From assembly GCF_051903065.1 (NCBI RefSeq), contig NZ_CP178438.1: 64,000 nucleotides of DNA. One strand, given 5' to 3'. Below, piece by piece: positions 17,986 through 53,130 of the stretch. The translations under genes were made by a program, and so were the position numbers. Numbering within the stretch: the stretch's first letter is position 1; every line of letters starts with the position of its first letter. The notes beneath the pieces are model-generated. The model was not told the DNA's origin and searched no databases. It saw only the letters and a program-made list of their open reading frames with translations. This stretch comes from Escherichia coli (lineage in GTDB: Bacteria; Pseudomonadota; Gammaproteobacteria; Enterobacterales; Enterobacteriaceae).

Positions 17986-18855
<870 letters not shown>

Positions 18856-18946
18856 CTAATCCTTTGAATTTACATAGTAAAAAAGATACTTTTCCTCATA
18901 GTGTGAGCTAATTTTATGTTTCGTTTGATGATCGGACCGGTCTCAA

Positions 18947-18983
18947 AAACCGCAGGCACGTTGTATGCAAGAACGTGCTGTGG
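18947..18983. repeat. repeat B, degenerate copy of repeat A
   Basis: AAACCGCAGGCACGTTGTATGCAAGAACGTGCTGTGG; about 36 of 41 positions match repeat A by hand alignment. Confidence 0.45.
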
Positions 18984-19318
18984 CTGGCTGGTGAACTTCC
19001 AATAGTGCGAATATTGAATGATTTCTATCTGTTATAGATTTTACCGTATTTCGGCATGAATGAAACTGAATATCCTCCCACCGATTCTCCATGACTTTAC
19101 GCCACTGTCTCTAGGGCTGCTATGTGCCAGAGGCGGACGTTGTTAAAATAGAAAATATCCCAACCTTGTATGAGTCGTGCAATAATTTCGAACTTTATAC
19201 AAAGCTTTGGTTGTAAAGGTGTATAACCACAAGTGACATTAATCACATTTGTAAAGGCAAAATGCAACAAACTGAATTAGTTAATTGCGTAAATTTGAAG
19301 TTATGTTAAGGTGGTGAT

Positions 19319-19451
19319 GGTTTATGGGCAGATTTTGGGTCGCGTTTCGCGATCAGTGAAAAAAATGTCCGATAGGATTGCCTTTCAGGATCTCATGTTC
19401 CTCGCATTTCTTAAGGTTCTTGTCAAGTTTGCGTAAGAGTGCCCATAAACC
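19319..19451 (+). ncRNA. candidate retron msr/msd non-coding RNA bounded by a1/a2 inverted repeats
   Basis: Perfect 12-bp inverted repeat GGTTTATGGGCA (19319-19330) / TGCCCATAAACC (19440-19451), the latter 19 nt upstream of the RT start; internal hairpin TCGCG-TTT-CGCGA at 19340-19352. Confidence 0.4.
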
Positions 19452-19470
19452 CTTTTAGAGGCGATCTAAA

Positions 19471-21306
19471 GTGAAACGACTACAATCATTAAAAGAAGCA
19501 AAAACAAAACCAGACTTGGCTAAGCTATTAGGAATCAAACCTTCAGCGTTAACATACTGCCTATATGTATTAAAACCTGAAAATCAATACACACAGTTTA
19601 AGATACCAAAAAAAAATGGCGGCGAACGGATAATAAGTGCACCTAACGGAATATTAAAGACGATACAGTCATCCTTATCAAGACTGCTTCTAGATTGCTT
19701 AGACGAAATAGTTTGCATTAAGTTTCCAGACTCAGAGTTAGCAAGGCAGAAAGCAAAAAACTCAAAAATATTAAAGTTAAAATGTTCCAACTCAGAAATC
19801 AAACAACCCTCACTGTCTCATGGATTTGAAAGAAAGCGTTCAATTATTACAAATGCAATGATGCACTTGGGGAAAAAATATGTTTTTAATATAGACTTGG
19901 ATAATTTTTTCGGCAGTTTTAACTTTGGTAGAGTCCGAGGTTTTTTCATAAAAAATAGAAACTTTGCACTCGATCCGGAAATCGCAACTGTAATTGCTAA
20001 AATTGCGTGCTACAACAATGAACTACCCCAAGGCAGCCCATGCTCCCCAGTAATCACTAATCTAATCACTCACTCGTTAGACATTAAACTGGCAGCGATT
20101 GCATCAAGAAACTCATCCACTTTTACAAGATATGCTGATGATATTACATTCTCTACGAGGAAGGGGGAGTTTCCTTCTGCTATAGCAAAAAATCAAAATG
20201 GTAAATATATCGTTAGTAAGAAAATTAGGGGCGAGATAACTCGCTCAGGTTTTATAATTAATGATGGGAAGACAAGAAATCAGTATAAAGACTCGAGGCA
20301 AGATGTAACAGGCTTAGTGGTTAATAAAAAGCCAAACACGAAAAAAGAATATTGGAGGCTTGTGCGTGCGCAATGTGACCATTTATTTAAACATGGTGAG
20401 TTCTTAGAGGTGATTGACGGCAAGGAAATAAAGGGGAATGTTAATAGCCTTGCAGGCAAACTTAACTTCATAGACCAAGTTGACCACTATAATAGATTGC
20501 GTCAAGGCGAAAAATTAAATCCAAAATATCACTTAAAAAAAGATGCCAATAAAAATGGCCATGCCAAAAAAAGGCGTTACTTACATAGTTCTAGAGAAAA
20601 AACGTTTAGTGAGTTTCTCTTCTATCGTTTATTTTATGGCAATGAATTACCAACAATTCTTACGGAAGGTAAAACTGACAATATTTATCTGAAGGCAGCA
20701 ATACATAAGTTAGCCTCATCATTCCCTAATTTGGCGGTCGCTGAAAGTCCAGGGCTCTCTTATAAGCCACGGACTAAATTTGTTAACTACAATGAGCGGA
20801 CAAAATATTTACTTGAACTTTATGGTGGTGCTGATTATTTAAAGGATTTTGTTATTCATTATAAACAACACTTTAATCGTTATAAGGCTCCCAAACCATC
20901 TAATCCAGTAATTATACTTGTTGATAATGATAGCGGACCAAAAGATCTGATTAATTACGTTAGTAAAGTTGATAATATTGGTATTTTCCCCACAGGTGTT
21001 CCAGATATCCGCGCCTCTGAGTTTGTACATATTTTTTGTAATCTTTATTTAGTGCTTACCCCTCAAGTTAAGGGATATACAGGAACTGATATAGAGCATT
21101 TTTTTAAAGATACAGATCGACTTAGACCACATAAAGGTAAGTTTTTCAATACAGTCTCTAAGCGTGATCATGATAATGATTTGAGCAAGGAATCTTTCGC
21201 AACTCATATTGTTCATGCCCACAAGCATGAAATTGATTTTAGTGGATTTACAAGCCTGTTAGAACGGTTAGTAAAAGTCATAAATCACTTTGACACTGTT
21301 AAGTAA
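19471..21306 (+). CDS. retron-type reverse transcriptase fused to a C-terminal Toprim domain (Retron-Eco2/Ec67-like architecture)
   Basis: 611 aa; NAMMH (NAxxH) at about 128-132, motif A NIDLDNFF, QGSPCSP, YADD at 221-224, VTG at 279-281; C-terminal TEGKTD and DND motifs suggestive of Toprim; GTG start after AGAGG. Confidence 0.8.
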   Translation: MKRLQSLKEAKTKPDLAKLLGIKPSALTYCLYVLKPENQYTQFKIPKKNGGERIISAPNGILKTIQSSLSRLLLDCLDEIVCIKFPDSELARQKAKNSKILKLKCSNSEIKQPSLSHGFERKRSIITNAMMHLGKKYVFNIDLDNFFGSFNFGRVRGFFIKNRNFALDPEIATVIAKIACYNNELPQGSPCSPVITNLITHSLDIKLAAIASRNSSTFTRYADDITFSTRKGEFPSAIAKNQNGKYIVSKKIRGEITRSGFIINDGKTRNQYKDSRQDVTGLVVNKKPNTKKEYWRLVRAQCDHLFKHGEFLEVIDGKEIKGNVNSLAGKLNFIDQVDHYNRLRQGEKLNPKYHLKKDANKNGHAKKRRYLHSSREKTFSEFLFYRLFYGNELPTILTEGKTDNIYLKAAIHKLASSFPNLAVAESPGLSYKPRTKFVNYNERTKYLLELYGGADYLKDFVIHYKQHFNRYKAPKPSNPVIILVDNDSGPKDLINYVSKVDNIGIFPTGVPDIRASEFVHIFCNLYLVLTPQVKGYTGTDIEHFFKDTDRLRPHKGKFFNTVSKRDHDNDLSKESFATHIVHAHKHEIDFSGFTSLLERLVKVINHFDTVK

Positions 21307-21365
21307 TATTATGATGCGCACTGATTATTCCTTATTCAGCTAAAATTTCTGGTAATGACTCCAAC

Positions 21366-21869
21366 TTATTGATAGTGTTTTATGTTCAGATAATGCCCGA
21401 TGACTTTGTCATGCAGCTCCACCGATTTTGAGAACGACAGCGACTTCCGTCCCAGCCGTGCCAGGTGCTGCCTCAGATTCAGGTTATGCCGCTCAATTCG
21501 CTGCGTATATCGCTTGCTGATTACGTGCAGCTTTCCCTTCAGGCGGGATTCATACAGCGGCCAGCCATCCGTCATCCATATCACCACGTCAAAGGGTGAC
21601 AGCAGGCTCATAAGACGCCCCAGCGTCGCCATAGTGCGTTCACCGAATACGTGCGCAACAACCGTCTTCCGGAGCCTGTCATACGCGTAAAACAGCCAGC
21701 GCTGGCGCGATTTAGCCCCGACATAGCCCCACTGTTCGTCCATTTCCGCGCAGACGATGACGTCACTGCCCGGCTGTATGCGCGAGGTTACCGACTGCGG
21801 CCTGAGTTTTTTAAGTGACGTAAAATCGTGTTGAGGCCAACGCCCATAATGCGGGCTGTTGCCCGGCAT
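21366..21869 (-). CDS. insB: IS1 InsB
   Basis: 167-aa ORF matching the remembered IS1 InsB sequence. Confidence 0.9.
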
Positions 21870-22063
21870 CCAACGCCATTCATGGCCATATCAATGATTT
21901 TCTGGTGCGTACCGGGTTGAGAAGCGGTGTAAGTGAACTGCAGTTGCCATGTTTTACGGCAGTGAGAGCAGAGATAGCGCTGATGTCCGGCGGTGCTTTT
22001 GCCGTTACGCACCACCCCGTCAGTAGCTGAACAGGAGGGACAGCTGATAGAAACAGAAGCCAC
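21788..22063 (-). CDS. insA: IS1 InsA
   Basis: 91-aa ORF matching the remembered IS1 InsA sequence (zinc-finger CPSC...CSHC). Confidence 0.9.
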
Positions 22064-22382
22064 TGGAGCACCTCAAAAACACCATCATACACTAAATCAG
22101 TAAGTTGGCAGCATCACCCCCTTTTCGTATATGCTAACCGTGAGCGGGAGTGAACAAGTCACCATAGCCAGGAACACTAGCGGCGTAATTCTTAAGCTGA
22201 GTGGCATTTCACCTGCGGTTTATCAGTGCATTCATAGTACCTTCATCAGCCAGATTGAACGAGTCAGCTTAGAATTTGCTGGCGAGGTTGTCACTATGAA
22301 GCATGAGAGTTACCTCAATGTTTATATAAGGATTCGGTCCCCATACCTGGAACGGTAACTCTCAATCTGATCGGTTCCTGAG

Positions 22383-24071
22383 TCAGTTCAAATCACGACT
22401 CATTTTTTTCGCTCTCACCGGCATCCCATTTGCCACAAAATATCCCGCCGTGCTCCTCGGCAACGCTCCCTGTCCACGAATCATGTCCGCTATTTTCTCG
22501 CCAATCATAATTGTCGTGGCGTTCAAATTCCCGGTGATAATCTGCGGCATAATTGACGCATCCACCACGCGCAGGCCTTCCAGCCCATGCACGCGGCCTT
22601 CGCCGTCAACCACTGCCATCTCGTCATAACCCATTTTGCAGGTACCGCACGGGTGGAAGGCGGTTTCGGCGTGGTTACGCACGAACTCATCGAGTTGCTC
22701 ATCCGTCTGACATTCCGTGCCGGGGCTGATTTCGCGGCCACGATACTGATCCAGCGCCGGTTGATGCATGATCTCGCGGGTGATGCGAATTGCGTCGCGG
22801 AACTCCTGCCAGTCCTGCTCGTGCGACATGTAGTTAAACAGAATCGCCGGATGCTGGTGCGGGTCGCGGGATTTAATCCGCACATGCCCACGGCTTGGCG
22901 AGCGCATCGATCCGACGTGGCACTGGAAGCCGTGCTCTTTCACTGCATTCGAGCCGTTATAGTTAATCGCTACCGGCAGGAAGTGATACTGAATATTCGG
23001 CCACGCAAATTCCTCTCGGCTGCGAATAAATCCGCCTGCTTCAAAGTGGTTGCTGGCACCAACGCCGGTGCCGCCAAACAGCCACTCCGCACCGATTTTC
23101 GGCTGATTCCACCACTGCAGGGCAGGGTAGAGGGAAACCGGTTCTTTGCACTCATATTGCAGATACATCTCCAGATGATCCTGAAGATTTTCACCGACGC
23201 CGGGTAAATCATGCACCAGCGGAATATCAAACTCCGCCAGCAGTTCAGCGCTACCCACGCCGGAACGTTGCAGGATCTGCGGAGAGGCGATCGCACCTGC
23301 ACATAACAGCACCTCTTTATTCGCTGTCGCGCGGGTTGGAATGGTGCTGTCGCCTTCCTGCCACTCGACGCCCACCGCGCGTTTGCCGTCAAAAATGATG
23401 TGATCGGTCATAGCGCGAGTACGAATGGTCAGGTTAGGGCGCGATTTGGCCTGATCGAGATAGCCGCGCGCGGTACTGGCGCGACGGCCCTGCGGCGTGA
23501 CGGTGCGATCCATCGGACCAAAACCTTCCTGCTGATAACCGTTGAGATCGTCCGTGCGCGGGTAGCCCGCCTGCACGCCCGCTTCAATCATCGCTTCAAA
23601 CAGCGGATTGACGCCGGGTTTGGAGGTAGTGACGCTCACCGGGCCATCGCCACCGTGGTAGTCGTTCTCGCCCACATCGCGAGTCTCGGCCTTGCGGTAG
23701 TAGGGCAGGCAGTCGAGATAACTCCAGTTCTCCAGACCGGGTTCTTGCGCCCAGTTATCGAGATCCAGCGCATTGCCACGGATGTAGCACATGCCGTTGA
23801 TCAGCGACGATCCACCCAGACCTTTACCGCGTCCGCACTCCATGCGGCGGTTATTCATAAACGGTTCAGGTTCCGTTTCATAGGCCCAGTTGTAGCGTTT
23901 ACCCTGTAGCGGGAATGCCAGGGCAGCGGGCATCTGGGTGCGGAAGTCAAAGCGATAGTCCGGGCCGCCCGCTTCAAGCAGCAGCACGGAGGTATTCGGA
24001 TCTTCAGTCAGACGGGTAGCGAGAACGTTGCCGGCTGAGCCGGCACCAATAATGATGTAGTCAAATTGCAA
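22383..24071 (-). CDS. betA: choline dehydrogenase
   Basis: Translation matches BetA ([20 protein letters not shown]...); apparent TTG start 5 nt after AGGAGG, because the supplied ORF extends upstream without an in-frame ATG. Confidence 0.9.
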
Positions 24072-36581: not shown

Positions 36582-37046
36582 GCCGGATGCGGCGTGAACG
36601 CCTTATCCGGCCTACGAATGGCGCAAGAATCTGTAGGCCTGATAAGCGTAGCGCATCAGGCATTTGTCACCATTGCCGGATGCGGCGTGAACGCCTTATC
36701 CGGCCCACGAATGGCACGAGAATCTGTAGGCCTGATAAGCGTAGCGCATCAGGCATTTGTCACCATTGCCGGATGCGGCGTGAACGCCTTATCCGGCCTA
36801 CGAATGGCGCAAGAATTGTAGGCCTGATAAGCGTAGCGCATCAGGCATTTGTCACCATTGCCGGATGCGGCGTGAACGCCTTATCCGGCCCACGAATGGC
36901 ACGAGAATTTGTAGGCCTGATAAGCGTAGCGCATCAGGCATTTGTCACCATTGCCGGATGCGGCGTGAACGCCTTATCCGGCTTACGAGTGGCACGAGAA
37001 TTTGTAGGCCTGATAAGCGTAGCGCATCAGGCAATTTGGCGTTGGT
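36582..37046. repeat. tandem REP/BIME array, 5 units of about 93 bp
   Basis: Five near-identical tandem units each containing GCCGGATGCGGCGTGAACGCCTTATCCGGCCTAC and GTAGGCCTGATAAGCGTAGCGCATCAGGC palindromic units. Confidence 0.85.
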
Positions 37047-47569: not shown

Positions 47570-47868
47570 GTTGTATTCGACAACCGATGCCTGATGCGCC
47601 GCTGACGCGACTTATCAGGCCTACGGGGTGTACTGAACTGTAGGTCGGATAAGACGCATGGCGTCGCATCCGACAACCGATGCCTGATGCGTCGCTGACG
47701 CGACTTATCAGGCCTACGGGGTGAACTGAACTGTAGGTCGGATAAGACGCATGGCGTCGCATCCGACAACCGATGCCTGATGCGCCGCTGACGCGGCTTA
47801 TCAGGCCTACGGGGTGTACTGAACTGTAGGTCGGATAAGACGCATGGCGTCGCATCCGACAACAATCT
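47570..47868. repeat. tandem REP/BIME array, about 3 units
   Basis: Three about 100-bp tandem units containing GCCTGATGCGCCGCTGACGCGACTTATCAGGCCTAC and GTAGGTCGGATAAGACGCATGGCGTCGCATCCGAC. Confidence 0.8.
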
Positions 47869-52486: not shown

Positions 52487-53130
52487 ATTGTCGGATGCGT
52501 CGCGTGGCGCATCCGACACCATGCGCAGATGCCTGATGCGACGCTGACGCGTCTTATCATGCCTACAGGCCTGAACCGTAGGTCGGATAAGGCGCTCGCG
52601 CCGCATTCGACACCATGCGCCGATGCCTGATGCGACGCAGGCGCGTCTTATCATACCTACAGGCCTGAACCGTAGGTCGGATAAGGCGCTCGCGCCGCAT
52701 TCGACACCATGCGCCGATGCCTGATGCGACGCAGGCGCGTCTTATCATGCCTACAGGCCTGAACCGTAGGTCGGATAAGGCGCTCGCGCCGCATCCGACA
52801 CCGTGTGCCGATGCCTGATGCGACGCTGGCGCGTCTTATCATGCCTACAGGCCTGAACCGTAGGTCGGATAAGGCGCTCGCGCCGCATCCGACACCGTGC
52901 TCAGTGCCTGATGCGACGCTGATGCGTCTTATCATGCCTACAGGCCTGAACCGTAGGTCGGATAAGGCGCTCGCGCCGCATTCGACACCATGCGCCGATG
53001 CCTGATGCGACGCAGGCGCGTCTTATCATGCCTACAGGCCTGAACCGTAGGTCGGATAAGGCGCTCGCGCCGCATCCGACACCATGCTCAGTTGCCTGAT
53101 ACGACGCTGGCGCGTCTTATCATGCCTACC
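52487..53130. repeat. tandem REP/BIME array, about 7 units
   Basis: Seven tandem copies of the GCGTCTTATCATGCCTACAGGCCTGAACCGTAGGTCGGATAAGGCGCTCGCGCCGCATCCGACACC unit between prpE and codB. Confidence 0.85.

Follow-up and report, generated by a model that had tools for sequence, protein, structure and literature searches.

A probable IS481-family fossil and IS1 deletion scar beside betA in Escherichia coli

Introduction

The closest relatives of the DNA examined here are the ISSod13-like elements of the IS481 family, which include copies carried by IncF and IncI plasmids and, in phage RCS47, a 1,201-bp element flanked by isaA and hxr. The transposase of the RCS47 relative belongs to the IS481 family (NCBIfam NF033577, E 3.7e-86), and the GenBank label of the gene is 'ISSod13 family'. 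Deletions adjacent to one end of an IS1 element are textbook behaviour of IS1 and provide a second point of reference. The third is the island PAI-X, reportedly attributable to Bateman et al. 2013. Passages of two papers (PMC7545054; PMC12922286) use this name for the ipbA(fimX)-hyxRAB island of uropathogenic E. coli.

Here we describe a 264-bp segment between IS1 and betA within a 64,000-nucleotide stretch of E. coli DNA (contig NZ_CP178438.1), hereafter called the window. The reading that we favour, with a probability of about 85%, is that the segment is inert relic DNA with a history in two layers, first a decayed IS481-family insertion sequence and then an IS1 deletion scar.

Results

Layout and distribution of the segment

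The IS1 copy in the window occupied 21351-22118 and betA ended at 22383, leaving a gap of 264 bp (22119-22382) in which the only ORF of at least 60 aa was one of 75 aa at 22131-22358 on the plus strand, all in agreement with a preliminary description of this locus. The two ends of the IS1 element read GGTAATGACTCC... and ...GGCAGCATCACC. The features of the locus are as follows.

21307-21350, plus strand: last 44 bp of prophage DNA after the stop codon of the retron Ec67-family reverse transcriptase (RT) gene; putative left deletion breakpoint
21351-22118 (768 bp), minus strand (insAB): complete IS1 of the IS1A type, with both terminal repeats (RefSeq annotation of an identical locus)
22119-22127: surviving 9-bp copy of the IS1 target, CCCTTTTCG (TUM13064 junction and the uninterrupted site L003:5001-5009)
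22119-22294: 176 bp confined to genomes with the ipbA(fimX)-hyxRAB island (PAI-X); betA-proximal terminus of the island
22131-22358, plus strand: 75-aa ORF, not regarded as a gene, on the strand opposite the transposase relic
22132-22253, minus strand: candidate fossil of IS positions 235-368, transposase codons ~44-90 with in-frame stops (nhmmer, tblastn)
22242-22403, minus strand: probable fossil of positions 4-165 of an ISSod13-like IS481-family IS (nhmmer)
22295-22382: 88 bp of betA 3' flank also present in K-12-type genomes (K-12-type match to query 177-262 at 95%)
22304-22364, minus strand: IS-derived stem-loop (11-nt inverted repeat, RNA fold)
22383-22385, minus strand: stop codon of the window allele of betA (RefSeq; the identical sequence in strain 23CRST031 is a 562-aa betA)
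22383-22409, minus strand: betA 3' end within the fossil inverted repeat (alignments)

The preliminary description had offered two origins for the segment, native sequence downstream of betA or a remnant of the prophage end, and had proposed BLASTN against E. coli genomes as the means of choosing between them. This search placed the segment beside betA in 4,199 of 5,426 complete E. coli genomes, and the answer was native sequence. By megablast against the same genomes it was full-length in 1,588, single-copy and nearly always chromosomal. In all three full-length cases inspected the segment followed betA directly, with identities over its whole length of 100% in Res13-Sevr-PER07-33, 97.7% in O157:H7 NE1127 and 91% in Nissle 1917. 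Taken as a whole, the earlier interpretation was partly supported.

An IS481-family fossil

Comparison of 22242-22403 with plasmid sequences by blastn gave matches in 255 records at 60-80% identity, with values of 71-78% among the matches listed. Three full copies were examined, and in each of them an annotated IS481-family transposase gene overlapped the match with its 5' end. Aligning copies that lie in different contexts gave the boundaries of the intact element, which measures 1,201 bp; its inverted repeats begin TGTATTAG..., the left inverted repeat reading TGTATTAGTCGCGACTTGATCTGACA... and the right end ...TGTCAGATCAGGTCTGAGCTAATACA.

A nucleotide profile was constructed from three intact IS copies and used in nhmmer to search the whole window and three reference loci (~90 kb). 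Two blocks were obtained on the minus strand at this locus. The first, 22403-22242, corresponded to IS positions 4-165 (85.7 bits, E 1.8e-26), and the second, 22253-22132, was collinear with it and corresponded to IS positions 235-368 (13.7 bits, E 9.7e-5). With a score of 13.7 bits in a search of four sequences and ~90 kb, the inner block at 22132-22253 weakly suggests a continuation of the fossil; an independent tblastn comparison gave 35% identity over 57 aa, stops included, with the same deletion picture. The two blocks overlap on the 12-mer CTGGCTGATGAA (22253-22242), which is present twice in the intact element, and this overlap points to an 81-nt (27-codon) deletion between 12-nt direct repeats in the fossil.

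Read on the minus strand from betA outwards, the fossil would consist of the inverted repeat, a 5' UTR with a hairpin, the transposase ATG and ~60 decayed codons. The left inverted repeat is recognisable from position 4 onwards (18/24 nt), its TGT tip having been replaced by A's. The start codon of the dead transposase lies at 22304-22302, and the first block retains the first ~21 codons. IS homology fades at ~22132, the position at which intact strains pass into the AT-rich spacer. The whole segment together with the last 21 nt of betA may be assigned to an IS fossil that carries no annotation.

What is present at this locus is therefore homologous to the 5' end of an ISSod13-like IS481-family element, comprising inverted repeat, UTR and transposase N-terminus. 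Instead of an intact DDE transposase there are ~60 codons with stops and the 81-nt deletion. A pair of inverted repeats with a target duplication was absent for this element, and the interval from betA to ykgE, including the other end of PAI-X, contained no right inverted repeat or other piece of the IS. Judged from these sequences, the segment is best classed as a fossil of an IS481-family IS and not as a functional member of the family.

Related fossils and copies were seen elsewhere. In K-12-type genomes ylbG, annotated as 'helix-turn-helix domain-containing protein', is a 5' fragment of an IS481 transposase of the same subfamily, with an 86% match to the IS 5' end in an Escherichia copy. 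Escherichia sp. MOD1-EC7003 carries two more fossils of the same IS (L132 2283-2563, 3336-3636), the first of which lies 1 nt from the emrE start codon and shares the 81-nt deletion with the fossil beside betA. This sharing would reflect either the spread of a defective copy in Escherichia or a slippage hotspot at the 12-nt repeats. At least 23 loci of this IS (L051-L073) were found on the 2.16-Mb chromosome of the uncultured gammaproteobacterium MAG OX638335.1, an expansion in a small genome like that of recently host-restricted bacteria.

A pattern search of genome contigs with GGTAACTCTCAATCTGATCGG gave no match. With a second contig pattern, none of the at least 120 loci among the matches listed contained betA, these matches being mobile IS copies. 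No paper mentioning an IS481 remnant at betA was found in a literature search. The segment downstream of betA belongs to a known kind of element, the IS481-family IS.

PAI-X and K-12-type genomes

In the island strains Res13, O157:H7 and Nissle the segment is followed by ~0.8 kb of AT-rich spacer (27% G+C, against 46% for the segment) and then by ipbA(=fimX)-hyxR-hyxA-hyxB-ykgH. Positions 22119-22294 were 100% identical to L003:5001-5176, 97.7% identical to O157:H7 and 91% identical to Nissle, and were missing in K-12. This stretch is contiguous with ipbA-hyxR-hyxA-hyxB in island strains and lies inside a 5,981-bp indel that separates them from K-12, as expected of a PAI-X terminus. Since ipbA is the next gene in intact strains, an invertible fimX switch was considered as a candidate for the segment and rejected; the known switch lies elsewhere, in the ipbA-hyxR interval, and the segment has no long inverted repeat apart from the IS UTR hairpin.

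In K-12-type genomes ykgH is next to betA and the match is restricted to query 177-262, window 22295-22380. The K-12 ykgH-betA spacer aligned to an island strain as two blocks 5,981 bp apart, with TAT common to both at the joint. The breakpoint on the right comes after codon 3 of the fossil transposase, within continuous IS homology. K-12 retains IS positions 4-113 only (nhmmer E 4.4e-15), and the boundary was identical in all K-12-type matches sampled. The simplest reading of these alignments is that the K-12 type would have been derived from the island type via one microhomology-mediated deletion. The alternative is a common ancestor in which a full-length IS abutted the ykgH spacer and from which the island and K-12 types were derived independently.

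The 3' end of betA is also variable. At the betA/IS junction the window has T7 (22403-22409) where K-12 has T6, A7 and A6 on the coding strand, and the additional nucleotide moves the stop 18 nt outward, giving a BetA of 562 aa as compared with 556 aa. The window stop is TGA at 22383-22385, while the K-12-type TGA would be at 22400-22402. Because IS position 4 aligns with 22403, both candidate stops lie in sequence derived from the inverted repeat. T7 was present in the window and in O157:H7, and T6 in K-12, Nissle and Res13. As Res13 is identical to the window over all 264 bp yet has the other tract length, the tract appears to change quickly.

Taking these observations together, we lean, with limited confidence, towards a wider proposal. 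PAI-X would be the ancestral E. coli state, rather than something that uropathogens acquired recently, and would have been lost by K-12-type strains (phylogroups A, B1) through a single 5,981-bp TAT-microhomology deletion with one end inside the fossil; every E. coli betA would end on a stop supplied by an ancient IS inverted repeat, with the A6/A7 tract toggling BetA between 556 and 562 residues.

The IS1 junction

The flanks of IS1 in the window differ (aaaatttct on the left, cccttttcg on the right), so there is no target-site duplication. CCCTTTTCG is found a single time in intact strains, where the fossil gives way to the AT-rich spacer (L003:5001-5009). The reciprocal junction ...AAGAACCCTTTTCG followed by IS1, that is spacer, CCCTTTTCG and IS1 end, was found exactly in TUM13064. 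The predicted left junction was present in only 8 genomes, and the strain of the window was not one of these. The IS1 of TUM13064 is a different variant, 96.5% identical to that of the window, which argues for an independent insertion at the same site and in the same orientation.

In TUM13064 (L013 3290-4100) the deletion runs the other way, and the fossil and betA-betB-betI-betT are gone, up to the pdeL upstream region. From its gene content, TUM13064 should be unable to make glycine betaine from choline. In COL60J a further IS1, flanked by an 8-bp duplication, interrupts the fossil inverted repeat, and many other genomes have IS1 near the ipbA-betA spacer, which is a hotspot for this element.

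To the left of IS1 in the window are the last 44 bp after the retron RT gene (19471-21306), where a prophage with a Mu-like tail ends; this prophage end was found in 19 of the 5,426 complete genomes. One of the reference strains, EC7, is collinear with the window up to ...gctaaaatttct and diverges exactly at 21350/21351, where it continues with actgtagtcc... toward yagP'/paoD. The order in EC7 after the prophage end is yagP'/paoDCBA, yagU, ykgJ, ecpEDCBAR, ykgL/O/M/R, fdeC, rclCBAR, ykgEFG, ykgH and betA, a distance of 31.2 kb from prophage end to betA, collinear and in the same orientation as the window. The window corresponds to this reference order minus ~31.0 kb and minus ~5.8 kb of PAI-X, with IS1 at the joint; these add up to ~37 kb if the ancestor combined EC7-like content with a Res13-like island. 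The homologies, the junction sequences and the collinearity are read directly from the genomes. A complete IS1, no target duplication, one original flank and one flank that is distant but collinear are what an IS1-associated deletion would leave behind. Possibly, the block containing ecp-ykgH, ipbA and hyxRAB was translocated rather than lost.

The route by which the junction arose may be either a deletion adjacent to IS1 or homologous recombination between separately inserted IS1 copies at CCCTTTTCG and 44 bp past the retron gene, and we regard the second as the less probable of the two although it retains some weight. The search counted 37 places matching IS1 on each chromosome of 23CRST031 and 23CRST027, the two complete genomes with an exact match to the window, and the identical right junction joined to quite different DNA in ECNB21-M121 indicates IS1-IS1 exchange in the lineage. 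The retron-flank site, however, is free of IS1 in all 17 other genomes that carry the prophage end, and the end product of both routes would be identical.

In ECNB21-M121 (L005 7469-9033) the IS1-fossil-betA junction is identical to that of the window, as are the IS1 itself (100%) and the BetA protein. To the left of IS1 in this strain are the DLP12 lysis genes essD-rrrD-rz, which are ~250 kb away in K-12. This points to a larger IS1-mediated rearrangement or a duplication junction, and because the left flank differs from that of the window, the IS1 copy of the window has been involved in more than one rearrangement, beyond a simple deletion.

Several other features of the window were recorded. 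The retron RT gene (19471-21306, plus strand) encodes a 611-aa Ec67-family reverse transcriptase with a C-terminal Toprim/endonuclease part and a YADD motif. It lies at the cargo end of the prophage with the Mu-like tail, next to an LEM-3-like GIY-YIG gene, with 18700-19470 upstream, and its 3' end and downstream flank (20700-21350) were found in only 19 of 5,426 complete E. coli genomes. An msr/msd RNA region, presumably upstream of the RT gene, was not recognised by Rfam. The yah region contains tandem naRNA4/REP325-type clusters (36636-36983, 47643-47807, 52675-53126; Rfam RF02564, 11 copies), an ordinary and common feature of E. coli.

Hairpins at the 3' end of the bet mRNA

The arms of the stem-loop, TGAGAGTTACC and GGTAACTCTCA at 22354-22364 and 22304-22314, form a perfect 11-nt inverted repeat, which is the main helix of the RNA fold (-37 kcal/mol, z = -3.2 against shuffled sequences). 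Both the GAGG Shine-Dalgarno sequence (22316-22313) and the A of the defunct transposase ATG are base-paired within this stem. Its outer 10 bp were invariant, without covariation, among 27 diverse IS copies drawn from Vibrio, Marinomonas, Photobacterium and Enterobacterales; the outer stem is a conserved feature of the IS subfamily. In IS10 and IS50, read-through transcripts are inhibited by fold-back of the RNA, and by analogy the stem of the ISSod13-like elements may act as an RNA structure.

One could suppose that the two IS-derived hairpins of the fossil (22379-22402 and 22304-22364, minus strand) now form the 3' terminus of betIBA transcripts, stabilising them against exonucleases or terminating transcription. 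The betA-proximal 110 bp are kept in 4,199 genomes, at 95% in the K-12-type matches sampled, K-12-type strains having kept them despite the loss of everything beyond, and the region folds better than shuffled sequence. We nevertheless consider this role doubtful. The hairpins are followed by GGAACC... and UGCUUC... and not by a U-tract, and a terminator scan detected no minus-strand rho-independent terminator in 22119-22382. Since the stem is equally invariant in mobile IS copies, and shows no covariation, its conservation may simply be inherited, and the retention in K-12 could reflect merely where the deletion ended. The promoter/terminator scan gave nothing inside the segment, the one promoter-like site lying in the IS1 end. 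A search of the whole window with Rfam 15 gave no match at the gathering score, the best on this region (E <=10) being a trypanosomatid snoRNA model at E 4.2, which is chance level.

The 75-aa ORF

The preliminary description had given a 75-aa ORF with no recognisable features as the sole content of the segment. The lack of features stands for the ORF, which had no Pfam or NCBIfam match, and does not stand for the DNA, given the homology to an IS481-family 5' end on the opposite strand. That the ORF could be a real small protein gene specific to E. coli is very unlikely. No stop interrupts it in Res13, O157:H7 or Nissle, in spite of DNA divergence of 2-9%, and an exact look-up returned it only as an E. 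coli 'hypothetical protein', such as Z0397 of EDL933, in a cluster of 239 members in which all named ones are E. coli. Its frame, on the other hand, is not conserved across homologues: frameshifts in O157:H7 and Nissle replace the last 13-22 residues, extending the product from 75 to 83 aa in O157:H7, and K-12-type genomes are without the N-terminal two-thirds. The ORF lies antisense to the decayed transposase gene, no promoter-like site was found for it in the scan, and current RefSeq annotation has dropped it, with no annotation under the segment match in any record listed. We therefore judged the ORF to be spurious.

Phage and prophage sequences

A search of 50,697 phage records for phage DNA in the segment gave three weak matches at ~77% identity, two of which were phage RCS47 under two accessions. 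The RCS47 match, which was the one inspected, lay on the IS481-family transposase gene carried by this phage and not on phage sequence proper; outside mobile-element cargo the phage database contained nothing similar. The other origin offered in the preliminary description, in which IS1 would have moved the end of the neighbouring prophage (attachment-site region or cargo) next to betA, has practically no standing: a prophage with a retron cargo gene does end 44 bp to the left of IS1, but the segment is on the betA side and adjoins betA in thousands of genomes, whereas the retron-end sequence is missing from all but 19 of 5,426 genomes and is followed by different sequence in those 19.

Discussion

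The history that we propose for the segment, a decayed IS481-family element on which an IS1 deletion scar was superimposed, would have begun when a ~1.2-kb ISSod13-like IS481 element landed at the 3' end of betA, oriented with its left inverted repeat abutting the gene, and then decayed. On this reading betA now ends inside the fossil, and island strains have the fossil, the AT-rich DNA and ipbA-hyxR-hyxA-hyxB in succession, K-12-type strains having presumably lost 5,981 bp from the interior of the fossil to just upstream of ykgH. The second layer would be recent. IS1 may have inserted at CCCTTTTCG, the precise boundary of fossil and AT-rich DNA, and ~37 kb on the left of the element, up to a point 44 bp past the prophage-borne retron gene, would then have been removed by an IS1 adjacent deletion or by recombination with a second IS1. 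The genes lost in this way would be yagP'/paoABCD, yagU, ykgJ, ecp, ykgMO, fdeC, rcl, ykgEFG, ykgH, hyxBAR and ipbA. Beyond supplying the stop codon and 3' UTR of betA, we infer that the segment has no current function.

In practical terms, the results provide a label, IS481-family fossil, for a stretch that was unannotated in 40 sampled RefSeq records of 4,203 matching. The recurrent 'hypothetical protein' of the Z0397 type can be retired, and annotation hygiene is the main value of this work. With betA we have a housekeeping gene whose stop codon and 3' UTR would derive from the end of a transposon. If the proposed ancestry of PAI-X is true, presence or absence of this marker of uropathogenic E. 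coli would reflect deletion in K-12-type strains and not gain by pathogens. The block gone from the locus carries in reference strains the ecp common pilus, rcl reactive-chlorine resistance, ykgEFG lactate utilisation and the pao aldehyde oxidoreductase, and its loss could affect phenotype.

Overall, the segment is an ordinary transposon fossil and today the marker of an IS1 deletion scar as well, and it can be set beside the systems with which we began. The inverted repeat, 5' UTR hairpin, start codon and first codons align with those of ISSod13-like IS481 elements at 71-78% over 162 nt. Unlike these elements, the fossil represents only about the first 30%, has the 81-nt deletion and stop codons, and is without catalytic domain, right inverted repeat or target duplication, and hence immobile. 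In E. coli K-12, ylbG, next to mnmH/selU, is a second chromosomal fossil of the same IS subfamily; it differs from the betA fossil in being annotated, in lying at another locus and in not having the 81-nt deletion, while the betA fossil is unannotated. With respect to PAI-X, 22119-22294 is its betA-proximal terminus, none of its genes is left in the window, and the invertible hyxR promoter controlled by fimX, between ipbA and hyxR, is outside this segment. As with IS1 adjacent deletions, an intact IS1 is kept at the joint, with one original flank, distant collinear DNA as the other flank and no target duplication; the mechanism in this case is deduced from the end product, and two-IS1 recombination would look alike.
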